A stretch of 64,000 nt of DNA from Blastocatellia bacterium (GCA_033856235.1 JAWVFI010000078.1:6062-70061); one strand, 5' to 3'; shown: positions 3,377 to 63,881, counted from the stretch's first letter. Notes: generated by a model not told the origin, from the letters alone. A program made the numbers and translations.

Positions 3377-3439
3377 AACTCAGCAGGCACTATCTGGTGT
3401 TGACGATTTTTCAATTCCAAGTCACGATCCGTCTCGACC

Positions 3440-4483
3440 ATGTCGAACCAAGCTCAGCCGGCAGAAGTTAGGAATAGCCCTCCCTCCGAAGACGATAAGC
3501 AATACGAGCTATCGCTACGCCCTACCCGTCTGGCTGAGTACATCGGCCAACGTCAGGCCAAAGACAATCTGCGCATCTACATGAAAGCCGCGCTGGGCCG
3601 CAAGGAAGCGCTCGATCATGTTCTCTTGACGGGCCCGCCAGGCTTGGGGAAAACGACGCTGGCGCACATTATCGCCAATGAAATGGGGGCGGAGCTGCGA
3701 GGGACAGCCGGCCCAGCTATTGAGAAGACGGGAGACATCGCGGCCCTGCTTACCAACTTGCAGGAAGGCGACGTCCTGTTCATTGATGAAATTCATCGCC
3801 TGATTCCGGCGCTCGAAGAGAAACTCTACCCGGCCATGGAGGACTATCACCTGGACTTATTAATCGGCCAGGGCACCGCCGCGCGATCCATCAAACTGGA
3901 ACTGCCAAAGTTCACCCTGATAGGGGCGACCACGCGTGCAGGTTTGATTACCGCTCCTTTGCGCGGCCGGTTCGGGATCCAGTTCCACCTGGATTTCTAT
4001 CCGAACGAGGATTTAGAAGTTATCTGCAAGCGTTCAGCAGAAATCCTGGGCGTGGAAATTGATGAGGGCGGGAGCCGCGAAATCGGGCGGCGCGCGCGTG
4101 GCACACCCCGAATAGTCAACCGGCTATTGCGGCGCGTGCGTGATTATGCCGAAGTTGATTACGACGGCCGCATTACCGAAGATGTCGCCCGCGATGCCCT
4201 CAACCGGATGGAAGTGGACACCTACGGGTTGGATGAGATGGATCGTAAACTGCTGCTGACCATCATCGAGAAATTCGATGGCGGGCCGGTGGGCCTGGGC
4301 ACGATTTCCGCCTCCATCCACGAAGAGAAGGACGCAATAGAAGAAATCATTGAACCTTATTTGATCCAGATCGGATTTCTTAATCGCACCCCCCGTGGCC
4401 GGATGGCGACCCCCCTTGCCTACCAGCATTTCGGCCTCCGGACCAATCGGCCCGATAAGCCCAGCCTCTTCGATCAAGTGTAG
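3440..4483 (+). CDS. ruvB: Holliday junction DNA helicase RuvB
   Basis: [12 protein letters not shown], Walker [12 protein letters not shown], Walker [10 protein letters not shown], and the [16 protein letters not shown] sensor region. Confidence 0.96.
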
Positions 4484-7739: not shown

Positions 7740-7778
7740 AGTTCGTTTAATGATGCTCGGGGCTGTGAGCGTCGCACC

Positions 7779-12101: not shown

Positions 12102-12139
12102 TTTCATCCGTTACGCCATTCTCACTTTTATTAAATATT

Positions 12140-22098: not shown

Positions 22099-24588
22099 AT
22101 GACTGACTTTCTATCTTCTCTGAACGACGAACAACGGCAAGCTGTGCTCGCCACCGAGGGGCCGATACTAATCCTCGCCGGCGCGGGGTCAGGCAAAACC
22201 CGTGTTATCGCACATCGCATCGCTTACTTAATCGCTGAGCGCGAGGTGGAGCCGTGGCACATTCTTGCAGTCACGTTCACCAACAAGGCCTCTCAGGAAA
22301 TGCGCAGCCGCGTCGAGCAACTCCTGAAAGGAATGGAGTTGAGCAGCGCACCGTTGATTTCCACTTTTCACAGTCTCTGCGTACGAATTCTGCGCCGCGA
22401 CATACAGGATCTTAACGCTGGTTACACTCGCTCGTTCACGATTTACGATCAGGACGATTCCCTGCGTTTGGTGAAGAATTGCATCAAGGACCTGGGACTG
22501 GACGACAAACAGGTGGCCCCACGCGCGGCGCAGTCGGCCATCAGTGCCGCCAAAAATCGCGGCCAGGATCCGGACGGTTATGCGCTCCAGGCTGAGCATA
22601 TCAGCGAGAAGCACGTGGGCATCGCGCGCGTATTTCATCTCTACGAAGAACGGCTCCGTAATAATAACGCGCTGGATTTTGATGATCTGCTGATAAAGAC
22701 AGTGCGGCTCTTACGCGACGTGCCGGAAGTACGAGACCGCTACAACCGTCGTTTTCAGTACATCCTGGTGGACGAATATCAGGATACCAACTCGTTGCAA
22801 TTTGCCCTCGTTAGCTTCCTGACCGAAAGGCAGCAGAACATTTGCGTCGTTGGCGATCCGGATCAAAGTATTTATAAATGGCGCGGCGCGGACATTTCGA
22901 ACATCCTCAATTTCGAACAGCACTTTCCCAACACCAAAGTCATTCGGCTGGAAGAAAACTACCGCTCAACCCAGAACATCCTGGATGTGGCCAGCGCGGT
23001 GGTGCGGAACAATATTGAGCGTAAGGAAAAGAGCCTCTGGACAAAGAATCCCAAGGGCGAGCGGATTCGTTATTACCAGGCGATGGATGCGGAGTCGGAA
23101 GCCCGCTTCGTAGCCGCCAGAATAGAAGAACATCGGGCGGCTGACTCCCAGCTTCGCGCGGCTGTCCTCTACCGCACCAACTCCCAGTCGCGGGTTTTTG
23201 AAGAAGCCATGCGCCGCGCCAGTCTGCCTTACAACATCGTCGGTGGCTTCTCTTTTTACGAACGCCTGGAAGTGCGCGACGTCATTGCCTATCTGAAGCT
23301 GGCGCTGAATCCCAACGACTCGATCGCGCTGCAACGCGTTATCAACAGTCCGCCCCGCGGCATTGGCAAACAAACGCTGGATGAGATCGACCGGTACGCG
23401 AAGGATTATGGCGTCTCCTATTGGGAAACGATTATGTTGCTGACTTCTGACGGCCAGCAACGTCTGTCGCCGCGCGCGACCGCCGCCTTGCGAAACTTTC
23501 AAAAGATCATCCTTCATCTTTCTCAATTGGCCGGAACAGCTATTGAAGGTTCAAATACTCCCGACGAGCAGCCCAGGCATAGTCTGGCTGAAATGAATCA
23601 AGAGCAGGTCGTCCCTGACACAGACGATAGTAACGGCGAACACACAATTCTCTCCGATTCGCTCGTTTCCGATCTGGTCAAAGCCGCTATTCTCGATACC
23701 GGCTATGAAAATGCACTTAAAGGCGAGAACTCCGATGAAGCGGAAGCCCGGCTGGAGAACCTTCAGGAACTGGTAAACGCGGCCGTCGATTACGACGAAA
23801 TGGGCGAGGAAGGCTTGCGGGAGTTTATCGATCACTCCGCGCTCGTGTCCGACGCCGATCAGTACAAACGGGATGCGCCTGTAACTTTAATGACCGCTCA
23901 TTCGGCCAAGGGCCTCGAGTTCCCTCTTGTTTTCATCGTCGGGCTTGAGGATGGGCTTTTTCCGCACTCGCGCTCCGCCTCAGATATCGCAGAACTCGAA
24001 GAAGAGCGTCGTCTCTGCTATGTGGCAATGACGCGCGCTGAGCGCTTCCTTTACGTCACCCACGCGGTGAAACGGCGCGTCTACGGCGAAGAGCTGGCGT
24101 CAGAGCCGTCGCAGTTTTTGAATGAGATGCCGATAGAACTAATCGAAGATTTGTCGCGCGGCCGGTCATGGCTTTCCCTGGCACGCGGTTCATCATCACA
24201 GAAAGAGGAGCGCGGGCTGAAAGATACGAAAGCCCGGGCTCGCTACAGCGGCAAGACTTACGATAGCGCCGACTCGATCGCCGAGTTCTTCAAGAATCGA
24301 GCCGCCCAGATGCCCGGCGCGGCCCCACAGAATCCGAGTCAGCGCGGCAGTAGCCAGACCGTAAGGGAGGGCCCCTCACGTTCTTCAAAACTCGAAACCC
24401 GAAACTCAAAACCCGAAACTTCCGTTTCCGACTTCACGCCCGGCTCGTACGTTCGTCACGCAAAGTATGGCCGCGGCCTGGTGCTGCGCCGTGAAGGCAC
24501 GGGCGACTCCCTGAAGTTGACCGTGACCTTTCCCGGATATGGGCAGAAAAAACTGATTCAAAAGTACGCGGGATTGGAACTCGCATAG
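22099..24588 (+). CDS. uvrD: UvrD/PcrA-type ATP-dependent DNA helicase
   Basis: MTDFLSSLNDEQRQAV start, Walker A AGAGSGKT, motif II VDEYQDTN, GDPDQSIYKWRGA, a C-terminal YVAMTRA motif and a Tudor-like tail (GSYVRHAKYGRG). The ORF-track start at 22015 is probably too early. Confidence 0.93.
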   Translation: MTDFLSSLNDEQRQAVLATEGPILILAGAGSGKTRVIAHRIAYLIAEREVEPWHILAVTFTNKASQEMRSRVEQLLKGMELSSAPLISTFHSLCVRILRRDIQDLNAGYTRSFTIYDQDDSLRLVKNCIKDLGLDDKQVAPRAAQSAISAAKNRGQDPDGYALQAEHISEKHVGIARVFHLYEERLRNNNALDFDDLLIKTVRLLRDVPEVRDRYNRRFQYILVDEYQDTNSLQFALVSFLTERQQNICVVGDPDQSIYKWRGADISNILNFEQHFPNTKVIRLEENYRSTQNILDVASAVVRNNIERKEKSLWTKNPKGERIRYYQAMDAESEARFVAARIEEHRAADSQLRAAVLYRTNSQSRVFEEAMRRASLPYNIVGGFSFYERLEVRDVIAYLKLALNPNDSIALQRVINSPPRGIGKQTLDEIDRYAKDYGVSYWETIMLLTSDGQQRLSPRATAALRNFQKIILHLSQLAGTAIEGSNTPDEQPRHSLAEMNQEQVVPDTDDSNGEHTILSDSLVSDLVKAAILDTGYENALKGENSDEAEARLENLQELVNAAVDYDEMGEEGLREFIDHSALVSDADQYKRDAPVTLMTAHSAKGLEFPLVFIVGLEDGLFPHSRSASDIAELEEERRLCYVAMTRAERFLYVTHAVKRRVYGEELASEPSQFLNEMPIELIEDLSRGRSWLSLARGSSSQKEERGLKDTKARARYSGKTYDSADSIAEFFKNRAAQMPGAAPQNPSQRGSSQTVREGPSRSSKLETRNSKPETSVSDFTPGSYVRHAKYGRGLVLRREGTGDSLKLTVTFPGYGQKKLIQKYAGLELA
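24387..24420. repeat. CGAAACx heptamer tract inside the uvrD coding region
   Basis: aaaactcgaaacccgaaactcaaaacccgaaact is translated in frame as KLETRNSKPETS. It uses the same word as the intergenic element at 46908-47055. Confidence 0.8.
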
Positions 24589-25658: not shown

Positions 25659-27479
25659 CTACTGCCCACACTCGGCATTCGAATGTGTGCGAACTGAACT
25701 AAACCGGTCCTGATATTCATCCGAAGTCAGAAATCCACAAACCATCGCGCGATAACCGCTGATGTCATTGGGCAGTTTGTTGTTCAGAACATTCAGCCAG
25801 AACTGATAGCCTTCCGGCTCCGGGTCCCGGCGCAAGTAACCGTAGTATTGCATCAAGACAAACGCCGGATTGAACTCGCGCGTCTTGAACTCCGGAATCT
25901 CGATTACATCCAGCAACACTTGCGCGCGAGTCTTACTGCCATCGATCAGCGCCTGAGTTTCCGTTTGCCGTTGCGCGTCGAAAGTCGCGCTGGTCAATCC
26001 CGCCGTGTCGAAAAGTTTGTTCACGAAATCCGCCGGCGCCATCCCTCCGGGATAGAAGTTCAGAAACGCTCCGCCCTGGACGAATTCGTTGGCATAGCTG
26101 ACGGTGCTGTCGTGCAACTGCGGCCCGCCGATCAGCCTCCCACGTTCGACCATGAAATGTGTATAGCTGGGAATCATTCCCAGCGCCGCGCGGTTCAAAC
26201 GATAGATGACATAGCCAGTTTCCTGGAACTCCTGCTCAACAAAGAAGGCGGCTGAAATTCCAATCCGCCGTTCACGCAAGCAGAGGGCATCCCTGCCGCA
26301 CTTCGCCAACTCGCCGGTCCAGTAGTCCAATCCCTCTTGATCCGGCACCCGATTTAGAAAGTCAGCGTAGTGCTGCCGAACAAACGACTGGGCGTCGTCC
26401 GTGGTATTCGACGTCGGAGCCACCGCATCGTTGTCTATGATGCTTAACGTTACGAAACCCGGTGAACCAAGAAATGCTCCTCCGGTTGGACTGCTGAGTT
26501 GCAGAAACAGTGTGTGGGTCCCCTGAACGTAGGCGTTTTCAGTAATCAAAACGGTGAACCTCTTGCTGGTTTCGCCCGGCGCGAAGTTCAGCATGCCACC
26601 GGCCAGCGTGTAGTCGCGCTTTTGGGTGGCCACACCAGCGTCGCCTGTAAAGTAGAAGACACTCGCCGGGCTCGACGTGTCGCCGGTGCGCGTGACCGTA
26701 ATCTTGGCGCTGCCATCGCCTTCGCCTACCGAATAGCTCGAAGCGCTGAATTGAATATAACTGGGCGGCGTGGCCGACGCCGCAGCCTTGAACACGGCGG
26801 GCTGGTTTCCGTTCTGACTGCTCAGGGTCCAAAAGGAAGGAGTGAAAGTGTAGCCGGGTTTCTGAGGCGTAAGTGTGACCATCGTGTTCCCCGTCTCCGC
26901 AATTCCGAGAGCGAGGATAAGATTTCCAAACGCGTTGGTTTGCGGCAACCCAAACGTCGCGCCATTAATTTGAATTGCCACGCTCGCGATGCCAGTCCCC
27001 GAACTATCCTCCACCCGAAGATTCACTTGCATGTATGGGTCGAGCCGCAGGTTCTTCGTTTGATTGCTGTTCAAGTTACTGACATTCGTGGCGAACGCAG
27101 TGTACTGGCCCGGCTTGGAAGGTGACAGGGTGTAATTCCCGCCCGCCGCGAGATCCGAGAAAGAGTAATTGCCGTTGGCGTCAGTTCCCGTCACCGCCGA
27201 CTGTGTTCCGCTAAGCGTTACATTGGCCCCGCTGATTCCATTATTGAACCCGTCCGTCACGCGCCCCGAAATCGAATAAGTCTGAGCCTGAGCGTGTGCC
27301 GGCGCGACCAAAGAGATCGCGACCACAGCAGTGATAAAAAGAACCCGAAGGACTTGAGCCGCAAAGGGCAAAGCGCAGAGCGGAAAGCGCGGCACCTGAC
27401 CCTTTGCTCGTACCCCTCGACCCTTTGCTCTTACCCCCTGGCACTTGGCTGCGTTTGAATGAGAAAGCATTGACAACAT
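25659..27479 (-). CDS. Secreted CarboxypepD_reg-like / Calx-beta / DUF4214 protein
   Basis: Signal-like VLFITAVVAISLVAPAHA, YSISGRVTD-type Ig-like repeats, a Calx-beta-like block and a DUF4214-like tail ending THSNAECGQ (the giant protein ends THSNAECGP). The first ~36 codons overlap an inverted repeat, so the true start may be the TTG at 27371. Confidence 0.8.
   Translation of the reverse strand: MLSMLSHSNAAKCQGVRAKGRGVRAKGQVPRFPLCALPFAAQVLRVLFITAVVAISLVAPAHAQAQTYSISGRVTDGFNNGISGANVTLSGTQSAVTGTDANGNYSFSDLAAGGNYTLSPSKPGQYTAFATNVSNLNSNQTKNLRLDPYMQVNLRVEDSSGTGIASVAIQINGATFGLPQTNAFGNLILALGIAETGNTMVTLTPQKPGYTFTPSFWTLSSQNGNQPAVFKAAASATPPSYIQFSASSYSVGEGDGSAKITVTRTGDTSSPASVFYFTGDAGVATQKRDYTLAGGMLNFAPGETSKRFTVLITENAYVQGTHTLFLQLSSPTGGAFLGSPGFVTLSIIDNDAVAPTSNTTDDAQSFVRQHYADFLNRVPDQEGLDYWTGELAKCGRDALCLRERRIGISAAFFVEQEFQETGYVIYRLNRAALGMIPSYTHFMVERGRLIGGPQLHDSTVSYANEFVQGGAFLNFYPGGMAPADFVNKLFDTAGLTSATFDAQRQTETQALIDGSKTRAQVLLDVIEIPEFKTREFNPAFVLMQYYGYLRRDPEPEGYQFWLNVLNNKLPNDISGYRAMVCGFLTSDEYQDRFSSVRTHSNAECGQ
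27361..27436. repeat. GCAAAGG/CCTTTGC-word inverted repeat
   Basis: gcaaagggcaaagcgcagagcggaaagcgc pairs with gaccctttgctcgtacccctcgaccctttgctcttaccc. It overlaps the nominal 5' end of the 25659-27479 ORF. Confidence 0.75.
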
Positions 27480-27690: not shown

Positions 27691-27763
27691 AACTCCTGAC
27701 TCCTGCAGCTTGCCTCCTGCAGCTTGCCTCCTGCTTCCTGCTCCTGCTCCTGCTCCTGCCGCG
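27691..27763. repeat. CTCCTG(C)-word tandem tract
   Basis: The 14-mer ctcctgcagcttgc occurs twice (27700-27727), then a gctcct run (27733-27759). Two short hairpins follow (27781-27803 cggaaaggc/gcctttccg and 27819-27833 ggaggc/gcctcc). Confidence 0.75.
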
Positions 27764-27894
27764 GCTCCGCCGTCTGATGTGCGGAAAGGCTTCGCCTTTC
27801 CGTCACCTCAACTTAATGGAGGCTGCGCCTCCTTTTCCCCGTCAAACATTGCTAGAATCCGACACTTCGAAAAGAGATCTGGAGAACGCCACCC

Positions 27895-29301
27895 ATGTTA
27901 GGTGAAAATTTGCCTCTAACCGCAGTATCTGCAGTCCTCGCTCTCATCTATCTTCTCCAACCTTCTCCGGCCGCATCGCAAACAGTTGCGCCGCCCCCTA
28001 ACGAAGTCCGGGCCCTCTGGGTCGTGCGCACCACGCTGACCTCACCCGAAAGAATCCGCACCATGGTCAACGCCGCCGCCGACAACGGCTTCAACACAAT
28101 CATCGTCCAGGTGCGCGGCCGCGGCGACGCCTACTACCGCTCGCATCGAGAGCCGCGCGCCAACGAACTGAAAGATCAACCCGCAGACTTCGATCCATTG
28201 GCAGTGACTTTGACAGAAGCAAAGCGCCGAGGCTTGAAAGTCCACGCTTGGGTCAACACCAGCCTCCTCGCAAACCTGGACGCGCTTCCCACAAATCCCG
28301 AGCACATCTACAACAAGCATCCCGAGTGGCTCGCCGTCCCCCACCCAATCGCCGCCGAGCTCTACAATATATCGCCGAAAGACCCGCGCTACCGGGCCCG
28401 CATCGTCGAGTGGTCCAAAGCCAACACAGCCGAACTCGAAGGTGTCTACACCGGCCCCGCGAATGCAAAAGTCCGCGAACACATTTACCAAATCTGGATG
28501 GACATTCTGAAGAACTACGATGTAGACGGCATTCACTTCGACTACATCCGCCTAGCCAGCCCCGACTTCGACTACAGCCGCACGTCCCTGGATAACTTCC
28601 GCAAATGGCTGGATCAGCGAGGAGCAGGTGCAGTCAGCAGGAGCAGCCGGAGCACTGTGCCTGGCGAGTCTCGCGGTACTCGCCAACCTTCCCTCTTTGC
28701 CCTTAGCTCTTTGCCCGGCGCAGCCGGCCTTCCCCCTTCCCTCTTTGCCCTTAGCCCTATGCCTGGCCAGCCCTTTGCCCTGCGCCCTTTGCCCGAGGGC
28801 TCCGCCCTCGCCCTCGCCGAAGCCTACCCCGAAAGATTCGCCGACTTCCAACGCGAACAAATCACCACGTTGGTCCAACGCATCTACCGCGAAGTCAAAC
28901 GCCGCAAACCAAACGTCACCGTCTCCGCCGCAGTCTTCGCCAACGACGAAAACGCCTACACGCGAAGATTTCAAAACTGGCGCCGCTGGCTCCAAATGGG
29001 AATCCTCGATGTAGTCTGCCCCATGGCCTACACGACAGACACAGAGATCTTCAAAACCCAAATCAAAACTGCCACCCAACTCGCCCACGCGAATAACAAA
29101 CAAATCTGGTCCGGCATGGGCGCCTACCGCCTCCCCATAGAATCCACAGTGGAAAAAATAAACGCCGCCCGATCCCTTAAATCAGACGGCATAATCCTCT
29201 TCTCCTACGATTTCACAATTCGCCCCAGCGCCCTCAACCCCAACGCCGACTACCTCGAACGAGTCCGCCATAACGCATTTGAGCGCCCGGGACCTGAATG
29301 A
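27895..29301 (+). CDS. Glycoside hydrolase-like family 10 (GHL10/YngK-like, DUF187) protein
   Basis: VRALWVVRTTL, GFNTIIVQVRGRGDAYY, VHAWVN and DGIHFDYIRL motifs with a signal-like N-terminus. It contains an in-frame low-complexity insert encoded by repeat-type DNA (28615-28800). Confidence 0.8.
   Translation: MLGENLPLTAVSAVLALIYLLQPSPAASQTVAPPPNEVRALWVVRTTLTSPERIRTMVNAAADNGFNTIIVQVRGRGDAYYRSHREPRANELKDQPADFDPLAVTLTEAKRRGLKVHAWVNTSLLANLDALPTNPEHIYNKHPEWLAVPHPIAAELYNISPKDPRYRARIVEWSKANTAELEGVYTGPANAKVREHIYQIWMDILKNYDVDGIHFDYIRLASPDFDYSRTSLDNFRKWLDQRGAGAVSRSSRSTVPGESRGTRQPSLFALSSLPGAAGLPPSLFALSPMPGQPFALRPLPEGSALALAEAYPERFADFQREQITTLVQRIYREVKRRKPNVTVSAAVFANDENAYTRRFQNWRRWLQMGILDVVCPMAYTTDTEIFKTQIKTATQLAHANNKQIWSGMGAYRLPIESTVEKINAARSLKSDGIILFSYDFTIRPSALNPNADYLERVRHNAFERPGPE
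28621..28795. repeat. Repeat-word DNA (GCAGGAG then CCTTTGC words) embedded in frame in the GHL10 gene
   Basis: ggagcaggtgcagtcagcaggagcagccggagc is followed by ccctctttgcccttagc, which occurs twice, and by ccctttgccctgcgccctttgccc. The translation is SLFALSSLPG...SLFALSPMPGQPFALRPLP. Confidence 0.75.
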
Positions 29302-37897: not shown

Positions 37898-37956
37898 GAT
37901 GACCTCTCGGAAGATGATTTGTTGGGAGAAGTTAATATTAAACGGTAAATGGGAAA

Positions 37957-38070
37957 AACAGAAGCCTGACCGTCAGGGAGGGCTCCCTCGGGACTCGAAT
38001 GGCCCTTGTCGAAGCTGGGGCCCTTTCAACACCATCGTAGGGAGCCCTCCCTAACGGTCGGGCTTCTGTT
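37957..38070. repeat. Palindromic doublet, family E (AACAGAAGCCYGACCGTYAGGGAGGGCTCCCT)
   Basis: aacagaagcctgaccgtcagggagggctccctc (37957-37989) pairs with gtagggagccctccctaacggtcgggcttctgtt (38038-38070). The right arm carries a GTAG head. Confidence 0.85.
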
Positions 38071-38088
38071 GTACCATTTCACCAACCA

Positions 38089-41525: not shown

Positions 41526-41535
41526 GAGTTTTACG

Positions 41536-41649
41536 GGTGAATGGTAAATGGTAAATAGTGAATGCTGATAGCAGCCGAACAGGGATCCAGGCAAAGGTAA
41601 TAGTAAAGAGCAGCTATCAATATTTACTATTTACCATTTACCATTTACC
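41536..41649. repeat. (GGTAAAT)n / (ATTTACC)n heptamer-word inverted repeat
   Basis: ggtgaat ggtaaat ggtaaat agtgaat (41536-41563) pairs with atttact atttacc atttacc atttacc (41622-41649), with a 58-nt centre. Confidence 0.9.
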
Positions 41650-41653
41650 CACA

Positions 41654-43112: not shown

Positions 43113-44837
43113 CTACACTCCCGCCGCCGCGATCGCGGCGCCTTCTGCCTGCCGTTTGACGATTACCAGGGTGATATCGTCGGCCGCCGGAGTGCCCTGC
43201 GAAAACTTTGTCAGCGCCGATTCGATCCGGTCGCGAATGCCCGCAGCGGACGCATCGAGGTTGCGTGCCACAACGTCGTACAAACGCGTCGGCCCAAATT
43301 CTTCGCCGCTGGGGCTTTGCGCCTCAGTGACACCGTCCGAATAAATCACCAGCACATCGCCGTATGAGAGGCGGGTCCTGCCCTCACGGTAATCAGCATC
43401 GGGCATGATGCCCAACGGGAGGCCGCCCGCAGCCAGTTGTTCCATGGTGCCCGCGGCATGGACGATCAAGGGAGGATTGTGGCCGGCGTTCAAGAACGAC
43501 AGCTCGCCGGTTTTCGGCTGCAGCTCGGCGTAGAAGAGCGTGATGAAACGATTCGCAGGAATGTTTTCCGCAAGATAGCGGTTAACGCCGGAGATCGTTT
43601 TCAATAATGAGTCATGGGACGCCGCCTGAGCATGTACGGCCGCGTGCAGCGATGACATCAGCAGTGCGGCAGCCGCCCCTTTGCCTGAGACATCGCCCAG
43701 CGCAACGATCAGCCGGCCGTCCTCGCGCGGAATGAAGTCGTAGTAGTCGCCGCCAATTTCATAACAGGGGAAGCTGATGCCCTGCAGCTCGTATCCGGCA
43801 ACGATGGGCGGCGCCGTTGGTTGGAAGCGTTGCTGAATCTCGCTGGCAACTTGAAGCTCGTGCTCCATGCGCTCGCGCTGTAGTTGCTCATCCAACAGGC
43901 GGGTGTTTTCCACCCGGATGGCGGCCACCGAGGCCAGGGTCGTCAGCACCTTCAAATGATCTTCAGTGAAGCGGCCTTCGGCCATGGGCGAGTCGGCATA
44001 GATGATGCCGAATATTTTTTCGCTAACGCCCAGGGGCACGGCCAGGACTGAGCGCACGCCCTGCAGCATTACTGTCCCACTCATGAATCGCGGATCGGCT
44101 TGGGCATCAGAGGTGAGTACTGACTTGCCGCGCACTACGACTTCCTCGATTACGGAACGACTGACGCGAATCTCACCGACTTCGCCGGCGCGGTCACGTA
44201 AGCGAGCCACGGCCACCTGCAATTCGGTACTGTCCTTCTCGCGCATCATGATCATACAACGATCCGCGGGCACCGCTTCGAACACGAGGCTGACCACCTG
44301 CTCCAGCGTCTCATTCAAGGTGGCGGACGAGAGCAGGGTAATGCCCACTTTGCTGATCAACGCCAGCAGGTCGCTGTGCCTGGAAGCGCGTTGGGCGGCG
44401 ACTTCTTCCGGCTTACTGCGCGCGCCTTCGATGGCTTCTAAAAGTCCGGAGGTGGTGCGATCGGAAGAGGTCAGGGCGATGGTGGCTTCCGGCAAAGACG
44501 TGGCGCTGTTGTCGGTGATCATGGTGGCGCCGGTACCAGAACGATAGGTACCGTCATCAAACATGATTTCCGTTTCACCGATTTGAATGCGGCCGCCGAC
44601 ACTCAGCGGCAGGGTCCCATCCACGGCAGCGCCGTTGTAAAGCGTGCCGTTGGCCGAACCCAGATCCTGCAGGACATAGCCGTCGCCTTCGCGCCGAACT
44701 TCGGCATGAACGCGTGAAGCAAAAGGATCGGGAATGCACAAGTCATTGCGCGCTGAGCGACCAATCGTGATGCGCAAGCGTCCCAAAGGGAAATTCTCTG
44801 ACGGACGATCGGGATATTTGACTATTAATTCAGGCAT
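43113..44837 (-). CDS. FHA-GAF-PP2C (SpoIIE-type) serine/threonine phosphatase
   Basis: N-terminal FHA (ITIGRSARNDLCIPDPFASRVHAEV...LGSANGTLYNG), a central GAF-like region, and a C-terminal PP2C/SpoIIE region (GGDYYDF, ALGDVSGKG, VIYSDGVTEA, DDITLVIV). Confidence 0.88.
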   Translation of the reverse strand: MPELIVKYPDRPSENFPLGRLRITIGRSARNDLCIPDPFASRVHAEVRREGDGYVLQDLGSANGTLYNGAAVDGTLPLSVGGRIQIGETEIMFDDGTYRSGTGATMITDNSATSLPEATIALTSSDRTTSGLLEAIEGARSKPEEVAAQRASRHSDLLALISKVGITLLSSATLNETLEQVVSLVFEAVPADRCMIMMREKDSTELQVAVARLRDRAGEVGEIRVSRSVIEEVVVRGKSVLTSDAQADPRFMSGTVMLQGVRSVLAVPLGVSEKIFGIIYADSPMAEGRFTEDHLKVLTTLASVAAIRVENTRLLDEQLQRERMEHELQVASEIQQRFQPTAPPIVAGYELQGISFPCYEIGGDYYDFIPREDGRLIVALGDVSGKGAAAALLMSSLHAAVHAQAASHDSLLKTISGVNRYLAENIPANRFITLFYAELQPKTGELSFLNAGHNPPLIVHAAGTMEQLAAGGLPLGIMPDADYREGRTRLSYGDVLVIYSDGVTEAQSPSGEEFGPTRLYDVVARNLDASAAGIRDRIESALTKFSQGTPAADDITLVIVKRQAEGAAIAAAGV

Positions 44838-44848
44838 GTTTGTTAGAT

Positions 44849-45020
44849 CGTAAACCGAAAACTGTAAACCGTAAACGGTGGGCCGTGAACTGTAAACCGG
44901 CGCACGATTTTCAGGTCCCTAACACTCGCTGCTTACCGGTTCACTGTGCTCCATCTACGATTCACGATTCTCGGTTTACGTTCTCAGTGTACGGTTTACG
45001 GTTTAAGGTTGACGGTTTAC
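44849..45020. repeat. GTAAACC/GTGAACC heptamer-word inverted repeat, 'empty' copy
   Basis: The left arm cgtaaaccgaaaactgtaaaccgtaaacggtgggccgtgaactgtaaaccgg (44849-44900) pairs with a right arm ending cggtttacggtttaaggttgacggtttac (to 45020). It shares the 17-mer ccgtgaactgtaaaccg with 56284-56300. Confidence 0.85.
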
Positions 45021-46324
45021 TGGACCCCACTGTTCCTGCGGCGATCGAATTCCCTGCCCAATTTTTCTGCAAGTCGCTTTGCCTCGTCTCTATGCTTCCC
45101 GTCCAGTGCGGCGCGTTGCGCCGCTGCCAGGGCCCGCAGTAACTCCGGGCGGGGAAGGTTTTTCGGATCGCGTCCCGCAATAATCGATACGCTCAGCGAA
45201 TAATTATGATCTTGATCCTGCTGGGCCAGCGTCACTGCGGCCTTTGTCGCCACCGCGGTCTGCGTAGCCCCACCGGGTGACTCGGTCTTTCCCCCCGCGG
45301 TGCTTGCCGAGCTCGCCGGCGCCGGCAGGGGCAGTCGCGCATTCACTGACACATTCGATGCTGTTGGCCCCGGCAGTTGCGTCAAACGCTGCTTCGCGGT
45401 CGCGACGATGTCATCGGGCGCGCCGCTCAGGAGCTTTTGATATTCGACGCGCGAGTCTTCGGTGTAACCTGCAAGGCGCAAAGCGTCGGCGTACTCAAGC
45501 TGGTCTCGCGGGGAAAACGCCGTATCGCCCATCGCACTTTTCAGGCGGCGATAGCTGTCAATCGCATCCGCATAGAGTTGCCCCTGGAATTGCAGCGAAG
45601 CCAGCATATGCAGCGTGTCAACGTCTCCCGGATCCCTTTGCGCTGCCGCAAAGTATTCATCGATCGCCTGCCGGCGTTGGCCATTACGCATGAAGGCCGC
45701 GCCCAACAGACGGTGTGCCTCGACATTTGCAGGATCCAGATTGACGACCGAATGCAGACGCTCAATCGCTTCCTTGATGTTACCTGCGGCCAGCAACGAG
45801 CGCGCTTCACCCAACTGCTGAGCCACCAACCGGCTCTGGTCCACGTTGGCTACCAGCGGCCCCGCGTTCGAGTCACGATGCCGTAAATAATAAACCAACA
45901 AGCCGGCGGCCAATGCCAGAAAGAAGAATGTCAGCAGTACTATGGGCCACCAACGTTTTCGCTTCGCCTGGGGTTGGGCGGCCGCAGGTAAGACCAGCGA
46001 CGAAGTGGTTGGCGCAGCGTATTGTTCACCGCTGTAATCCGCCGCCAATCCATCGTCCCCATTGGCGGTGACCGGAATTTGCGCCAGGCGCTGGTTCCGC
46101 AGAATCGAGTCCAGTTCGGCGCTGCCAACGCGCGCGGTGTTGGCGTGCCGCTCATCCGCCAAACCATCAGTCGTGCGCCCGTCAATGGACAGCGGCACAG
46201 TTTGCGCCAGCGGCGAGATTGGGCCACTTAAGCCGCCCGCAGTTTTCAATGGGGCGCCGCAAAGCCGGCAGAAGCGCGCCTCTGTCGGGCTGGGGGAATT
46301 ACAACTTGGACACAAGTACGCCAT
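45017..46324 (-). CDS. Zinc-ribbon / single-pass membrane / TPR repeat protein
   Basis: N-terminal CPSCNSPSPTEARFCRLCGAPL zinc ribbon, TM helix WWPIVLLTFFFLALAAGLLVYYL, then TPR-like repeats (AIERLHSVVNLDPANVEAHRLLGAAF...). Confidence 0.75.
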   Translation of the reverse strand: MAYLCPSCNSPSPTEARFCRLCGAPLKTAGGLSGPISPLAQTVPLSIDGRTTDGLADERHANTARVGSAELDSILRNQRLAQIPVTANGDDGLAADYSGEQYAAPTTSSLVLPAAAQPQAKRKRWWPIVLLTFFFLALAAGLLVYYLRHRDSNAGPLVANVDQSRLVAQQLGEARSLLAAGNIKEAIERLHSVVNLDPANVEAHRLLGAAFMRNGQRRQAIDEYFAAAQRDPGDVDTLHMLASLQFQGQLYADAIDSYRRLKSAMGDTAFSPRDQLEYADALRLAGYTEDSRVEYQKLLSGAPDDIVATAKQRLTQLPGPTASNVSVNARLPLPAPASSASTAGGKTESPGGATQTAVATKAAVTLAQQDQDHNYSLSVSIIAGRDPKNLPRPELLRALAAAQRAALDGKHRDEAKRLAEKLGREFDRRRNSGVQ

Positions 46325-46333
46325 TATTTTCGC

Positions 46334-46369
46334 GATCTCAAATTTGAGATCTCAGATCTCAGATCTCAG
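46334..46369. repeat. (AGATCTC)3 heptamer tract with an inverted copy
   Basis: gatctcaaatttgagatc is a palindrome (46334-46351). Three perfect agatctc units occupy 46347-46367. Confidence 0.9.
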
Positions 46370-46375
46370 CAAGCT

Positions 46376-46903
46376 TCAACGCGGCGTGCGGCGCACGCGA
46401 GTGGCGACGCGCCGGGCGCCTTCGCGCACCACGACGGTTCCGGCAATGATGTCATGCAGCGCGCGGCCCTCCGCGTTGAACGCCGCAATCAAGAAACCAA
46501 TGCCCAGCGTCAGTATGGAAGCCGGGTAGCCGACAAAATGACGGAGCAGTGTCTGGGGAAAACTCAGTTCCCTGCCGTCGATGCGCTCGATGCGAATACC
46601 GGCGGCCCACTTTCCCAGGGTCTGGCCCCAAACGGCAGCGAGGAACACAAAGTTCAAAGCGGCCAGCAGAATGGCCGTAATGATGCCCAGGGTTTCTGCG
46701 GTACCGCCGGCGGAGCGCGCGCCGCCACCCAGCATCCGAGCGATGAGCACGCTGATAGCGACTACGCAGATGACGACGATGTAATCGATCAGCAGAGCGC
46801 CGCAGCGAAGCAGAATGGGCGCGCGAAACCTCTCGAGATGGGCCAGAGCTTCGGCACGGCTGATCGTGCGCGGGCGCGGAAGAGTGGTCGGGTCAACTGT
46901 CAT
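46376..46903 (-). CDS. RDD family membrane protein
   Basis: 175 aa with RCGALLIDYIVV (RDD-type motif), three hydrophobic helices and a C-terminal ALHDIIAGTVVV. Confidence 0.8.
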   Translation of the reverse strand: MTVDPTTLPRPRTISRAEALAHLERFRAPILLRCGALLIDYIVVICVVAISVLIARMLGGGARSAGGTAETLGIITAILLAALNFVFLAAVWGQTLGKWAAGIRIERIDGRELSFPQTLLRHFVGYPASILTLGIGFLIAAFNAEGRALHDIIAGTVVVREGARRVATRVRRTPR

Positions 46904-46907
46904 ATAA

Positions 46908-47055
46908 AGTTTCGAGTTTCGAGTTTCGAGTTTCGAGTTTTGGGTTTCGAGTTTTGGGTTACGAGTTACAGTTTCGGGTTTGGTTCGTTCGATCTGATTC
47001 CGACGTCATGAATTTTCGCTTTGAACTCGAAACTCGAAACTCGAAACCCGAAACT
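46908..47055. repeat. (AGTTTCG)n / (CGAAACT)n heptamer-word inverted repeat
   Basis: Four perfect agtttcg units plus about seven degenerate units (46908-46984) pair with cgaaact cgaaact cgaaacc cgaaact (47028-47055). Confidence 0.9.
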
Positions 47056-47063
47056 TCCCCGCC

Positions 47064-48725
47064 TTATCCAACTAAAAAATGCAATGTGGTTTCGCCCAGG
47101 CGGAGTTTGTCTCCACTGTCCAGCACCCGCGGTTGCCTGGGCGCCAGCCGGATTGCATCGTTAATGACTGTGCCATTGATCGAACCCAGGTCTTCGACCA
47201 GAAAGGTCTCGCCTTCGCGCCAAATCCGAGCATGCCGGCGCGACACTTTGGTTTCGGGATCAAAGCGCGAGAGATCCACTTCGGGAAAAATATTTGACTG
47301 CGGGTCCGTACGTCCCAATAGATTGCTTTCCTTCTGCAGATGAAACGAAGCATCAAGCTCTGTAGTTCCCGCTACAACCAGTTTTGCGGTTCCACGCGCC
47401 GCGACCACGGCCCCAGTCCCCATTCCGATCGGTTGTCGAGCGCCGCAATGGGCACAGAAAATATCGTCCGCAGCGATCCTGCCGCCACAGAAACCACAAT
47501 ACACAGTTTCCACCTTGACTGTTTCGCCGCCCAGGTCGTTGGCCGGCATTCCATAACTGACTTGTCCGGTCCCTAACTTTTCCAGGTGGGCCACCAATGT
47601 GTCGCGCATTTCCGCAGCCGAGCGAAAGCGGTTCTCAGGTTTGTATTCCACCGCCCGCATCAATATCCGTTCCATCTCCGTTGACATCGCCGGGTTGATC
47701 TGGCGCGGCCGGAGGTTTTTAGTGAAATCAAAGATCAGTAAGGGATTGTCCTGAGGATCGGCGCCAGTCGCTAGATGAAACAGGGTGGCGCCCAAGCTAT
47801 AAATATCCGATCGCGGTTCCACCTGGCCGCTAAACAACTCCGGCGGGGCGTATCCCATTGTGCCGACAGCAGTGACGCCTTTTTCCTGCTTGGTCACCCA
47901 ACGCGCTATGCCAAAGTCAATCAACATCACGCGGCCTGAGTTGCCGTCAATCATCAAATTTGCCGGTTTCAAGTCGCGGTAGATAATCGGCTTCGGTCGC
48001 GTGTGCAGGTAATGCAAGACATCGGCTATCTGGATTCCCCAATCGGTCACGTTCTTTTCGTCAACCCGGCCTCCCGGAGCGTTTCTAACCCGGGACGAAA
48101 AGTCGCCACCGGAAATATATTTCATCACCAGATAGAAGCGTCCGGCAGTTTCATCGTAGAAGTAATCGTAGATAGTCGGGATCGAAGCGTGCTCCAACGA
48201 AGTCAGCAAGAGAGATTCGCGCTTGAAATCACTGATTGCCTTTTCATGTTGCACGTCGTCAATGTGCGATTCGATCATTTCCTTGACGGCCCGCGGAGCG
48301 TCACCCAGATTTCGATCGCGCGCCAGGTACACCGCGCCCATGCCGCCGCCTCCGATGCGTCGCACTATTTCGTAGCGTCCATTCAAGCAAGTGCCCGCCT
48401 CCAGTTGCTTCGCCTTTGAGTGCTTGCTGGAACTCTCGTTCGCGCGGACGGTTGGTTGCACGGGAGGAACTGTATCGCCGTCGCCCAACAGGTCTCCGGT
48501 GGTTATGCTCCGGACAGCAGCTGAGACCCTTTGCTCGTGCGCATCGGTGATGTCCGCATCAGCGGTCGCCTCTGAATTTTCAGGAGAGACTGAGCTGATC
48601 GGAGGCGCGCCTCCTGAGGCGCCCGCTACGGCGGCAGCGCTCTGCTCCGACCGCGGCGTACCGCAGCTTCCGCAGAACTTTTCTTCGGGCGCCAAGGTCG
48701 CGCCGCATTCGCCGCAAATCGTCAT
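47064..48725 (-). CDS. Ser/Thr protein kinase with N-terminal zinc ribbon, internal zinc ribbon and C-terminal FHA domain
   Basis: CGECGATLAPEEKFCGSCG; kinase motifs IGGGGMGAVY, AVKEM, IIYRDLKPANL and DFGIAR; CGFCGGRIAADDIFCAHCG; and FHA (LLGRTDP...VSRRHARIWREGETFLVEDLGSINGT). Confidence 0.9.
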   Translation of the reverse strand: MTICGECGATLAPEEKFCGSCGTPRSEQSAAAVAGASGGAPPISSVSPENSEATADADITDAHEQRVSAAVRSITTGDLLGDGDTVPPVQPTVRANESSSKHSKAKQLEAGTCLNGRYEIVRRIGGGGMGAVYLARDRNLGDAPRAVKEMIESHIDDVQHEKAISDFKRESLLLTSLEHASIPTIYDYFYDETAGRFYLVMKYISGGDFSSRVRNAPGGRVDEKNVTDWGIQIADVLHYLHTRPKPIIYRDLKPANLMIDGNSGRVMLIDFGIARWVTKQEKGVTAVGTMGYAPPELFSGQVEPRSDIYSLGATLFHLATGADPQDNPLLIFDFTKNLRPRQINPAMSTEMERILMRAVEYKPENRFRSAAEMRDTLVAHLEKLGTGQVSYGMPANDLGGETVKVETVYCGFCGGRIAADDIFCAHCGARQPIGMGTGAVVAARGTAKLVVAGTTELDASFHLQKESNLLGRTDPQSNIFPEVDLSRFDPETKVSRRHARIWREGETFLVEDLGSINGTVINDAIRLAPRQPRVLDSGDKLRLGETTLHFLVG

Positions 48726-54846: not shown

Positions 54847-54986
54847 CTTTTTGGAGTGCGCTGACCTGTCAGCGCTTTGTCCGGACGCGACCGGTCGCGA
54901 CCATCTTAGACTGCGATCCCGGCAAAGAAACGCGGCGCCAAGCCGCCGCTGACCAAAGCGGCGACAGGTCGCCGCACTCCAAAGGG
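54847..54986. repeat. Palindromic doublet (GGAGTGCGSYGACCTGTCRSCGCTTTG)
   Basis: ctttttggagtgcgctgacctgtcagcgctttgtcc (54847-54882) pairs with gaccaaagcggcgacaggtcgccgcactccaaaggg (54951-54986). An inner gcgaccggtcgc palindrome is present. It lies between permease paralogues 2 and 3. Confidence 0.85.
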
Positions 54987-55038
54987 CGGCCCCCACCGTG
55001 CAACTCAATTGCTGTAGCCCGCGTAATACACGGTACTA

Positions 55039-56280
<1,242 letters not shown>

Positions 56281-56282
56281 AA

Positions 56283-56326
56283 CCCGTGAACTGTAAACCG
56301 TAAACCGTAAACCGTGAACCGTAAAT
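56283..56326. repeat. GTAAACC/GTGAACC heptamer-word arm, left flank of the four-helix-bundle gene
   Basis: cccgtgaactgtaaaccgtaaaccgtaaaccgtgaaccgtaaata. It is the reverse complement of the tract at 56787-56841. Confidence 0.9.
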
Positions 56327-56408
56327 ACAAAAGCACTGTGAGAATCATTTTGGAGATTTCTTAAACTGTTGAAGCTCGCCCCTTCATCATTGCCTAAAGG
56401 AGTTAACG

Positions 56409-56780
56409 ATGCGACCACATGAAAAGCTTGATGTGTGGAGGAAGGCAATTGAGTTTGTTCTGGCGGTTTACAAAGCAACGGAGGGTTTTCCCAAGGAAGA
56501 GAAATTCGGCTTAACATCACAGGTAAGACGCGCTGCTGTATCAATCCCTGCCAACCTGGCCGAAGGCGCTGCGAGAAGCTCGCGCAAAGAGTTCGCTCAT
56601 TTCATCTCTAATGCTCAAGGATCGGCAAGCGAAGTTGAGACAGAACTACTAATCGCCTACCGCCTGGGTTATCTCCCAGAGGAAGAGTATTCCTCGTTAA
56701 GGAAGGCTCATGATGACTTGGGTAAGATGTTGAATGGGCTATCCCGGCATATACGCCAGCGAATAGGCAACAGTTCTTAA
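56409..56780 (+). CDS. Four-helix-bundle protein (23S rRNA intervening-sequence protein / Avd-like family)
   Basis: HEKLDVWRKAIEFVLAVYKATEGFPKEEKFGLTSQVRRAAVSIPANLAEGAAR...GSASEVETELLIAYRLGYL is the typical signature of this family. aaggag precedes the ATG. It is flanked by heptamer inverted repeats. Confidence 0.9.
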   Translation: MRPHEKLDVWRKAIEFVLAVYKATEGFPKEEKFGLTSQVRRAAVSIPANLAEGAARSSRKEFAHFISNAQGSASEVETELLIAYRLGYLPEEEYSSLRKAHDDLGKMLNGLSRHIRQRIGNSS

Positions 56781-56786
56781 ACCCAT

Positions 56787-56841
56787 CCCGGTTTACGGTT
56801 TACGGTTCACGGTTTACGGTTCACGGTTCACGGTTCACGGG
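56787..56841. repeat. GGTTTAC/GGTTCAC heptamer-word arm, right flank of the four-helix-bundle gene
   Basis: cccggtttacggtttacggttcacggtttacggttcacggttcacggttcacggg. Confidence 0.9.
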
Positions 56842-56848
56842 AACAACG

Positions 56849-58105
56849 ATGAAAATCATACGCAGCGACATCTTCGAAAACCTGAAAATGGCCCTGGCCA
56901 CTTTGCGGGCCAACAAGCTGCGCTCTTTCCTGACCGTTATCGGCGTGATGATTGGCGTCATTACCGTGATGCTGATTTCTTCCATCATCAGCGGCGTTGA
57001 TACGGCTGTGAAGACTGAGCTGGAATCCTACGGCACCAATACGATCTACATTATTAAGTTCAATTCCGGCATCCACATTGGCCGGCTCTCGCGCGAAGAG
57101 CGGATGCGCAAGGAATTGACCTACGACGATGCGCTCGCACTGCAACCACTGCCGGCGGTGGAGTTGTCAGTTCCCTTCCTCGACATCAGCAATAACTTTT
57201 TCGGACAGAAGATCACGGTGACCGGCGTCGGCAAAACGTCAAACGCAGTGGGCCTCCAGGGCACGCTGCCCGACTTTGAACGTGCCGGGACTCAGGTCGT
57301 CAAGGAAGGCCGCTTCTTTTCCCAATATGAGAATGATACGAACAGTCTGGTTTGCGTCGTTGGTTCAGCAATCGCCTCAGACTTTTTTCCTAACGGCTCG
57401 GCGGTGGGGCAGGAACTTGGCATCGGCGGCTATCAATTCCGCGTGGTGGGCGTACTGGAAAAACGCGAGCAGTTTCTGCTGGGCGGCGGAGGCGACAGTC
57501 AGAATAGCGTGATCTACATGCCTTTTAATGTCGCCCGGAAGCTGAAGCCGAATTCCGAGGACGTCATGATCCTGGCGGTGGCCCGCAAAGGGATGATGGA
57601 CGAAGCGAAAGATCAGATCACTGACGTACTGCGCGTGCGGCGCCAGGTTGCTTTCGGCCAACCTGACAATTTCGGGATGCAAACCGCGGAACTATTCCTC
57701 AGTAACTTTCGATCCATCCTCAGCGGAGTCGCAATCGCAATGGTAGTTATTTCTTCGGTTGGCCTGATGGTAGGCGGCATCGGCGTGATGAACATCATGC
57801 TGGTGTCGGTGACCGAGCGCACCCGTGAAATTGGTGTGCGCAAGGCCATTGGCGCGCGCCGCAGCGATATCATGTGGCAGTTCCTGATTGAGGCGGCGAC
57901 GCTGACCGGTTTCGGAGGACTAGTCGGTCTGACAATCGGCTGGCTACTGACATTTCTCTTACGGCTGATATTGCCTTCGTATGTTCCGCTCTGGGCGCCG
58001 ATTGGCGGCTTCGTCGCCAGTGTGGCTATCGGAATGGTTTTCGGTCTCTGGCCGGCATGGAAAGCCGCGCGGCTCGACCCCATCGAATCACTAAGATATG
58101 AATAG
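56849..58105 (+). CDS. ABC transporter permease, MacB/FtsX family (paralogue 4)
   Basis: LRANKLRSFLTVIGV, MLVSVTERTREIGVRKAIGA, and C-terminal WPAWKAARLDPIESLRYE. Confidence 0.9.
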   Translation: MKIIRSDIFENLKMALATLRANKLRSFLTVIGVMIGVITVMLISSIISGVDTAVKTELESYGTNTIYIIKFNSGIHIGRLSREERMRKELTYDDALALQPLPAVELSVPFLDISNNFFGQKITVTGVGKTSNAVGLQGTLPDFERAGTQVVKEGRFFSQYENDTNSLVCVVGSAIASDFFPNGSAVGQELGIGGYQFRVVGVLEKREQFLLGGGGDSQNSVIYMPFNVARKLKPNSEDVMILAVARKGMMDEAKDQITDVLRVRRQVAFGQPDNFGMQTAELFLSNFRSILSGVAIAMVVISSVGLMVGGIGVMNIMLVSVTERTREIGVRKAIGARRSDIMWQFLIEAATLTGFGGLVGLTIGWLLTFLLRLILPSYVPLWAPIGGFVASVAIGMVFGLWPAWKAARLDPIESLRYE

Positions 58106-60159: not shown

Positions 60160-60294
60160 GTCAGAACCGCCTGCGGTAGCGGGCGGTTGATCTAGCAAAG
60201 AGCAAAGCGCCATGGTCTTTTCCAGTTCTTGCCCTTTGCCCTTTGCCCTTTGCTCTTCGCGCATTAACCGCCCGCTACCCCAGGCGGTTCTGAC
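60160..60294. repeat. Palindromic doublet family B copy 3, with a nested GCAAAGG/CCTTTGC inverted repeat
   Basis: gtcagaaccgcctgcggtagcgggcggttgatc (60160-60191) pairs with aaccgcccgctaccccaggcggttctgac (60266-60294). The interior holds agcaaagagcaaagcgcc (60195-60212) against gccctttgccctttgccctttgctct (60231-60256). Confidence 0.85.
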
Positions 60295-63657: not shown

Positions 63658-63814
63658 TGTAGGACAGGCATTCTTGCCTGTCCACCGTTAGGCAGGAGGC
63701 AGGGGCAGTAGGCAGGAGCAGGGCCGGTGTTACGTTGCCATTAGAGCTTTACCTGGTGACTCCTCCGGCCGACTGGCTCCTGCCGACTGCTTCTGCCTCC
63801 TGCCTCCCGCCTCC
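63658..63814. repeat. GTAG hairpin followed by a GCAGGAG/CTCCTGC-word inverted repeat
   Basis: The hairpin is gtaggacaggcattcttgcctgtcc (63658-63684). Then ggcaggaggcaggggcagtaggcaggagcaggg (63691-63723) pairs with ggctcctgccgactgcttctgcctcctgcctcccgcctcc (63775-63814). Confidence 0.8.
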
Positions 63815-63881
63815 TTGGCACGGTTGACCCGCATGGTTCTGGTCGCATAGCATTGAGTATCGAAACGGATGCAGGTGAATC

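Follow-up and report, generated by a model that had tools for sequence, protein, structure and literature searches.

A gene for a small protein of the four-helix-bundle family lies, together with two mutually complementary arms of tandem heptamers, as a compact cassette between two permease genes in DNA from a Blastocatellia bacterium (GCA_033856235.1 JAWVFI010000078.1:6062-70061). We refer to this stretch of 64,000 nt as the window. We find that the arms accompany the gene in most of the relatives that we surveyed, and that gene and arms occupy the spacer between two cistrons as one unit. With a somewhat better than even chance, in our judgement, this is a promoter-less cassette of the intervening-sequence kind that nests in operons. 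By analogy with such sequences, it would be co-transcribed with its host operon, its arms would pair, and RNase III would free an mRNA that encodes only the four-helix-bundle protein, while the flanking cistrons stay functional.

The source of the window is a 130-kb soil-metagenome contig, which NCBI assigns to Blastocatellia bacterium (Acidobacteriota). A preliminary description of this DNA had reported a gene flanked by heptamer inverted repeats, and the sequence at the given place matches that description. The arm pair (56283-56325 and 56799-56841) comprises 43 nt that are 93% complementary at a separation of 473 nt. Tandem Repeats Finder delimits 6.0 copies of CCGTAAA at 56284-56325 and 7.4 copies of CGGTTCA at 56789-56840. 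The 5' arm begins 2 nt past the upstream permease's stop codon and the 3' arm stops 7 nt short of the downstream permease's start codon. RNA folding of a 591-nt stretch predicts a closing stem of about 42 bp around the open reading frame (ORF), with a minimum free energy of -202.9 kcal/mol and z = -4.67. A Shine-Dalgarno-like AAGGAG is located at 56397-56402, 6 nt before the ATG, and AAAGGAG is invariant across four orthologues. A consensus scan found no intrinsic terminator within the cassette and no sigma-70-like promoter either, although the sigma-70 model may not fit the promoters of Acidobacteriota. The cassette is not an assembly artefact, because an orthologous cassette with the same heptamer word is present in independent metagenome assemblies.

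The operon around the cassette is on the plus strand and encodes a membrane-fusion protein, an ATP-binding cassette (ABC) ATPase and four MacB/FtsX-type permeases. The four-helix-bundle gene stands between the stop of permease 3, at 56280, and the start of permease 4, at 56849. An Rfam scan of the whole window returned zero family matches, rRNA included.

The ORF encodes 123 residues and is the single member of its family in the window. It matches PF05635 (E = 2.6e-41, 140.6 bits, cut-off 33.8) and TIGR02436 (131.1 bits, cut-off 24), and its closest solved structure is 2GSC, the protein XCC0516 (E = 2.7e-32, residues 2-118), followed by 2RLD (E = 8.6e-8). At least 6493 relatives were found at E<=1e-10. 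Among orthologous cassettes the ratio of nonsynonymous to synonymous divergence (dN/dS) is 0.04-0.07, where synonymous sites are near saturation (pS 0.6-0.8). The protein is therefore functional and held by strong purifying selection. One orthologous ORF, in Blastocatellia isolate BP_49 (L078, 3946-4306; L numbers denote the loci compared here), has in-frame stops in its 5' part, and could be a pseudogene or be affected by sequencing error. The protein matches none of the defence-system models in PADLOC. The family owes its name to ORFs of rRNA intervening sequences, and we know of no function for PF05635/TIGR02436 outside diversity-generating retroelements.

The association between gene and arms was surveyed in 80 loci with relatives that are 45-79% identical. 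These were taken from contigs of one genome per species, mostly from Pyrinomonadaceae/Blastocatellia and in a few cases from Elusimicrobiota, Planctomycetota, Methylomirabilota, Terriglobia and Deltaproteobacteria; 78 homologous loci were scored. For the arm score, the 300 nt upstream of the gene were compared with the 200 nt downstream of it and the highest-scoring ungapped complement was taken; a locus with a score of at least 15 was considered armed. We observed arms in 62/78 loci (79%; median score 20.5), whereas the same geometry shifted by 2-3 kb yielded 0/249 (maximum 13) and other ORFs in the same DNA yielded 10/472 (2%). Among other ORFs shorter than 600 nt, the count was 3/140. Some of the ten exceptions have an arm in common with a neighbouring cassette, and others are transposase-like ORFs with non-heptamer repeats of their own. 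A gene with two arms is thus a recurrent unit, as had been proposed for the window, and nearly all arms have a structure of period 7.

The sequence of the arms differs between loci. In the 63 armed loci (the 62 and the window's own contig) we found 26 distinct dominant heptamers, for example CGTAAAT, GTGACAA, GTGATAA, GGTAAAT and GTGAAGA. Of these loci, 59 have a purine-rich 5' arm and the other four do not, and 56/63 have a GT[AG]A core. The two arms remain complementary although the word varies between loci, which is as expected under a pairing constraint. Many 5'-arm words contain a stop codon (TGA, TAA or TAG; e.g. L040 at 2185-2220 and L044 at 3959-4003), so that a tandem array of them stops all three frames within 21 nt; the upstream ORF frequently terminates inside the 5' arm in armed loci. 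Other 5'-arm words resemble a Shine-Dalgarno sequence (AGGAG, GGTGAT). Two armed four-helix-bundle genes were seen within 5.1 kb in L159 (1923-2264 and 4648-4935), and the polarity is reversed in L175 (1802-2152), with a pyrimidine-rich GGTTTAC array upstream.

The same flanking inverted arrays were found in about 15 of the 21 loci that we examined outside Acidobacteriota, in Cyanobacteriota, Gemmatimonadota, Alphaproteobacteria, Bacteroidota and Xanthomonas. The cyanobacterial arm words are GGTGACA in Anabaena sp. 90, GGGAGTA in Nostoc edaphicum (score 31), GGGAAAA in Nostoc sp. ATCC 53789, AGGGTGT in Calothrix brevissima, GGGAAAA/GGGAAGA in Geminocystis and AAAGCTA in Pseudanabaena. We observed GAGGACG/GATGACA in Azospirillum, GGTTTAA/GGTTCAA in Riemerella and GGGAATC in Xanthomonas, and arms of period 8 in Aphanizomenonaceae and Gemmatirosa. 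Complementary arms were not found at two of the 21 loci. In Xanthomonas (L106-L110, 2430-2875), accB and accC flank the orthologue of XCC0516 (PDB 2GSC); its arms are four copies each of GGGAATC and NATTCCC, and its 3' arm ends right at the start codon of accC. On three cyanobacterial plasmids (L095, L096 and L097), armed four-helix-bundle genes stand co-oriented within CRISPR-cas operons, twice between cas6 and cas4 and once between cas10 and cmr3.

Comparison of occupied and empty sites indicates that the cassette is an old insertion that was gained or lost at several junctions between cistrons. The closest protein relatives (86-91% identical) occupy the corresponding junction in the orthologous operon, with the same word in 3-6 and 3-7 copies. 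In the four more distant orthologous operons, which are free of the cassette (L090-L093), the gap between permeases 3 and 4 measures only 4-99 nt: 4 nt in L093 (permease 4 88% identical), 23 nt in L091 and L092 (78% identical) and 99 nt, with an unrelated palindrome, in L090 (85% identical). In L090 the palindromic repeat GTAACGCAAACTGTTAGTTTGCG occurs in two spacers of the permease operon (2018-2042 and 3405-3491), one of which is the cassette junction. Reciprocally, three sites without the gene in the window carry a cassette in relatives (Table 1), and the 5' arm of the cassette in L018 includes the 17-mer of the window cassette that is described below. The insertion into a permease operon, which had been postulated from the window by itself, agrees with both comparisons. 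The empty sites are without arms; arms and ORF are therefore gained or lost jointly. The spacer that is occupied in L018 is divergent and contains in the window the palindrome CAGAAGCCTGACCGTCAGGGAGGGCTCCCT ... AGGGAGCCCTCCCTAACGGTCGGGCTTCTG at 37955-38070.

An ancestral gene without repeats had been named beforehand as the observation that would speak against an insertion; the orthologues have repeats, in variable copy number. They preserve the heptamer word at a pS of 0.6-0.8, so the arms are conserved beyond neutral expectation among orthologous cassettes.

Table 1. Features of the cassette, its host cistrons and related sites in the window.
Feature	Position	Strand	Basis or remark
5' arm, ~6 tandem heptamers (CCGTGAA/CTGTAAA/CCGTAAA)	56283..56325	+	Tandem Repeats Finder and arm alignment
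Leader, 5' arm to start codon	56326..56408	+	
Four-helix-bundle gene, 123 aa (PF05635/TIGR02436)	56409..56780	+	Profile matches
3' arm, ~7.4 tandem heptamers (CGGTTCA/CGGTTTA), complement of 5' arm	56789..56841	+	Tandem Repeats Finder and arm alignment
Upstream host cistron, third MacB/FtsX-type permease	55039..56280	+	Gene call and profile match
Downstream host cistron, fourth MacB/FtsX-type permease	56849..58105	+	Gene call and profile match
Empty site, 38-nt glmU/glmS spacer	12102..12139	+	Four-helix-bundle cassette with GTGACAA-type arms in L033 and L039
Empty site, 39-nt spacer from Roadblock/LC7 gene to next gene	7740..7778	-	Cassette in L040 and L044
Spacer of peptidase S46 gene and helix-hairpin-helix gene	37898..38088	.	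Cassette in L018; in the window, the four-helix-bundle gene is absent and an unrelated long palindrome is present
Gene-less hairpin of the same word family	44845..45020	-	Arm alignment, 17-mer at 44883-44899, RNA fold

The position of the cassette relative to its neighbours is narrowly defined. The upstream neighbour is co-oriented in 57/61 loci and the downstream neighbour in 47/58. The median start of the 5' arm is 2 nt before the upstream ORF ends (within 20 nt in 54/57 loci), and the median end of the 3' arm is 10 nt ahead of the downstream ORF's first in-frame start (within 30 nt in 41/45). Inside the cassette, the median distance is 33 nt from arm to ATG and 12 nt from the stop codon to the 3' arm. 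The cassette substitutes exactly for the spacer between cistrons, and paired arms would place the stop and start codons of the neighbours next to each other at the base of the stem, as at the empty sites. The suggestion that the cassette can live in any transcript was overstated, since the cassette was found almost exclusively in spacers between co-oriented cistrons.

The closest known counterpart is the ORF-containing intervening sequence of 23S rRNA, as in Leptospira and Coxiella. In Coxiella burnetii, this element measures 428-444 nt and contains the ORF S23p within a terminal stem of 28 bp (Warrier et al., PMC4990558). Its 5' end consists of two or three tandem GACAGAT heptamers, with a strain-dependent copy number, and RNase III cuts were mapped within the stem, at the start of the first repeat (PMC4990558). 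The element is regarded as horizontally acquired, and its ORF as decaying and not expressed (PMC4990558). The likeness is hence closer than the preliminary description had claimed: both elements have a PF05635-type ORF of about 120 residues within stem-forming termini (28 bp in Coxiella, arms of 43 nt in the window), a total size of about 430-560 nt and terminal tandem heptamers (2-3 in Coxiella, 6 and 7.4 in the window), that is, the same parts in the same order. In contrast to the rRNA elements, the window cassette lies between cistrons of an ABC transporter and not in helix 9, 25 or 45 of 23S rRNA, and because it is outside 23S rRNA we do not class it as a member of that group. Furthermore, the Coxiella ORF is argued to be decaying, whereas the window ORF is under strong purifying selection.

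The mechanism that we favour has the following steps. The cassette would be transcribed as part of the host operon and its arms would pair in the transcript to form a duplex of 20-45 bp, which would rejoin the stop and start codons of the neighbours. Such a duplex would be a substrate of RNase III, and a discrete mRNA for the four-helix-bundle protein could thereby be cut out, as in rRNA intervening sequences.

Several observations weigh against excision from the transcript. Cleavage by RNase III, mapped in Coxiella, is argued here by analogy only. A structure that is selected in the sense RNA should favour G:U over A:C mismatches, but the arms contain 35 of each (209 and 202 in extended arms), which gives no signal specific to RNA; this ratio is equally compatible with DNA-level pairing and with plain concerted evolution of the arrays. 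The co-orientation with the host operon may reflect just that a gene without a promoter has to be expressed. About 20% of the homologous loci have no clear arms, and three cyanobacterial copies combine a long 5' array with merely a short 3' complement. Finally, excision leaves the heptamer build of the arms unexplained.

The equal mismatch counts would also suit an element that moves as DNA. The arms would then be terminal inverted repeats made of tandem sub-repeats (foldback type) or hairpins of single-stranded DNA, as the target of a trans-acting recombinase or of the four-helix-bundle protein, and the RNA stem would be incidental. We regard this as unlikely, though worth keeping in view. 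It would account for the presence/absence polymorphism at four junctions, for gene-less hairpins with the same word family and for the variable copy number among orthologues, and these genomes have further elements that depend on hairpins, for instance Y1 transposase genes with palindromic flanks. However, the four comparisons of occupied and empty sites revealed no target-site duplication, and the only ORF of the cassette encodes a 123-residue helical bundle with no known catalytic activity and no transposase or recombinase. The arm sequence, with its 26 words, is not conserved. No near-identical copies were seen at different sites; the paralogues are just 60-75% identical, and any movement would therefore be ancient. 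The orientation bias and the exact fit between stop and start codons are unexpected of a DNA transposon unless selection imposes them. Compared to a transposon or a miniature inverted-repeat transposable element, the cassette thus shares the presence/absence polymorphism but has neither target-site duplications nor a terminal sequence that is conserved across the family.

Y1 transposase genes (PF01797, RAYT/IS200-like) are a second type of hairpin-flanked gene that nests in these operons. They were seen between cistrons in L083/L084 (2697-3365) and L063 (6669-7115), and the one in L083 stands between permeases 1 and 2 of the same operon; all of them are flanked by non-heptamer inverted repeats of their own. 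The cassette resembles the pair of repetitive extragenic palindromic (REP) sequences, or bacterial interspersed mosaic elements (BIME), and their associated Y1 transposase (RAYT) in layout only, as both combine genome-wide intergenic hairpin repeats with a protein gene flanked by an inverted repeat pair. In contrast to REP/RAYT, the arms are tandem heptamers and not a fixed palindrome, true RAYT-like genes in relatives are flanked by non-heptamer sequences of their own, and we rejected membership as the cassette encodes no Y1 transposase. An integron attC cassette was likewise rejected, as there are two arms instead of one 3' site and no integrase.

The preliminary description had also compared the protein to Avd, the accessory protein of diversity-generating retroelements. 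The two belong to the same fold family and there are weak profile matches, but these stay below both curated cut-offs (PF22296, 26.7 bits, cut-off 40; NF033474, 33.6 bits, cut-off 80). Unlike for Avd, no template/variable repeats lie nearby, and the genes called in the 10 kb to each side include no reverse transcriptase. The single Avd gene beside a reverse transcriptase that we examined, from Pseudomonas phage Bise, has no arms (score 8).

Heptamer arrays also occur without the gene. The 17-mer CCGTGAACTGTAAACCG is found exactly twice in the window, at 56284 in the cassette and at 44883 in the gene-less hairpin (Table 1), and all nine matches with up to 2 mismatches fall into these two loci (0 expected by chance). 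This bears out the shared 17-mer and word family that had been noted for the two. The hairpin is a degenerate inverted repeat with arms that are 71-79% complementary. It takes up the spacer of two minus-strand genes in the same orientation, which encode an FHA-GAF-SpoIIE phosphatase and a TPR protein, and forms one long imperfect hairpin as RNA of their strand (z = -6.4). That it is a copy of the cassette without cargo, as had been proposed, is possible but unproven, because hairpins built from many other heptamers occupy further spacers of this genome; it may be what is left of a decayed cassette, a non-autonomous relative or an array that is independent of cassettes. In a metagenome scan, the 17-mer had 82 matches, of which 10 were in a period-7 context and three loci had a four-helix-bundle gene nearby; the estimated chance rate is about the same.

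The window contains 13 runs of period 7, compared to 0-1 for periods 5, 6, 8 and 9. Besides the arms and the gene-less hairpin, arrays are found at 24385-24419, 27361-27437, 27693-27772, 41535-41651, 46342-46371, 46905-47055, 60227-60260 and 63691-63815. They comprise at least six word families (AAACCCG/CGAAACT, GCAAAGG, CTCCTGC/GCAGGAG, GGTAAAT, GATCTCA and TTGCCCT), and many form local hairpins. At 43113-48725 on the minus strand, the three spacers of four co-oriented genes (44838-45016, 46325-46375 and 46904-47063) are almost exactly filled by heptamer arrays or hairpins. The words of the arrays at 46342-46371, 46905-47055 and 41535-41651 differ from that of the gene-less hairpin. We considered the hairpin at 41535-41651 (GGTAAAT) as the remnant of a GGTAAAT-armed cassette that lost its ORF, and rejected this as its loop has no similarity to the leader or trailer of such cassettes.

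Further repeats were noticed in the window and in relatives. A GHL10 glycosyl-hydrolase-like ORF (27895-29301) contains in-frame heptamer-type arrays (GGAGCAG, CTTTGCC) at 28611-28818, its Pfam match covers 381 residues for 303 profile positions, and arrays of complementary words are located upstream at 27361-27390 and 27693-27760. In the host operon, the 193-nt spacer between permeases 2 and 3 contains 2.2 copies of the 26-nt unit GCGGCGACAAGCCGCCGCACACCAAA at 54932-54988. Very long direct arrays also occur: one spacer in L082 (2803-3160) has about 14 GATCTGA-type units and after them about 14 units of the ACCTGAA/ACTTGAA type, and L146 is a 1.4-kb contig that consists mostly of GGTTCAC/GGTTTAC units.

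The wide distribution of such arrays raises the idea that PF05635 proteins are their trans-acting partners, as RAYT are for REP. Every protein clade would act on arrays of one particular word, which it binds, processes or propagates, and an inverted pair of them would mark the gene. We hold this to be a tentative proposal with a low probability. A lead comes from Xanthomonas, where the orthologue of XCC0516 is flanked by a word that is repeated across the genome. According to Rehm et al. 2015 (PMC4692102), GGGAATC heptamers form G-quadruplexes and are organised in about 186 arrays, with 70-75 convergent pairs. The arms of the Xanthomonas gene are exactly this word, and the accessible part of the report makes no mention of XCC0516. 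Word sharing near cassettes lends no support to a trans-acting partner. Around the cassettes of relatives we counted 84 gene-less arrays in 393 kb, about one per 4.7 kb, whose words are mostly unlike that of the local cassette; the cassette's word was used by 10/84, compared to a permutation mean of 5.9 (standard deviation 2.9), which is not significant.

A stem that controls expression is a further alternative, and we consider it doubtful, a little more so than the two preceding ones. Pairing of the flanks would regulate or stabilise the mRNA, by occlusion of the ribosome-binding site or by protection from exonucleases, and would entail neither excision nor mobility. In many loci the 5' array reaches the start codon, the units resemble a Shine-Dalgarno sequence (AGGAG, GGTGAT, GGAGAT) and the 3' units resemble its complement, and the short median distance between arm and ATG points in the same direction. 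In the window, however, 71 nt separate the arm from the ribosome-binding site, which does not pair with the 3' arm when the RNA fold is predicted, and the word CCGTRAA is not Shine-Dalgarno-like. Moreover, a control stem leaves unexplained why the arms abut the stop and start codons of the neighbours. That a short gene merely happens to have one of many background arrays on each side is very improbable: period-7 arrays are indeed abundant and fill four consecutive spacers at 44.8-47.1 kb, but the controls effectively refute this coincidence, as mutual complementarity is specific to the four-helix-bundle loci, most nearby arrays have other words, the empty orthologous sites are armless and the pattern recurs in distant phyla.

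Three things were known already: rRNA intervening sequences that bear an ORF and are cleaved by RNase III, the wide distribution of PF05635 genes, and heptamer arrays. The arrays have been described from cyanobacteria, Beggiatoa and Xanthomonas (PMC4679880 and PMC4692102). Like the arms described here, the cyanobacterial short tandemly repeated repetitive (STRR) type and the Xanthomonas GGGAATC arrays are intergenic tandem heptamers that often occur as convergent pairs with the potential for stem-loops. As far as the accessible parts of these reports go, the arrays are free-standing, with a G-quadruplex or regulatory role and no link to PF05635, whereas here they are the arms of a gene cassette. 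A full-text search, in which older subscription journals are poorly covered so that a prior description is possible, found no paper that links PF05635 genes generally to flanking heptamer inverted repeats or to nesting between cistrons.

Operons of many kinds appear to host the gene. The reported CRISPR association of the four-helix-bundle family may thus reflect nesting rather than function, and co-occurrence with CRISPR-cas or defence loci should not be taken as functional linkage. If the proteins were indeed trans-acting partners of the arrays, there would be one explanation for the STRR repeats, the GGGAATC repeats of Xanthomonas and a very large protein family with no assigned function. 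If the packaging described here is general, the intervening sequences of 23S rRNA would be a special case of a widespread cassette that lives mostly between the cistrons of operons, at junctions such as accB/accC in Xanthomonas, glmU/glmS, cas6/cas4 and cas10/cmr3 in cyanobacteria and the transporter operon of the window. At least a part of the heptamer repeats of cyanobacteria and Xanthomonas would then gain a genetic context. The role of the protein and the cutting of the stem would become testable in the tractable Xanthomonas, where the structure 2GSC is solved and, as cited in PMC4692102, RNA sequencing of X. citri has been published.

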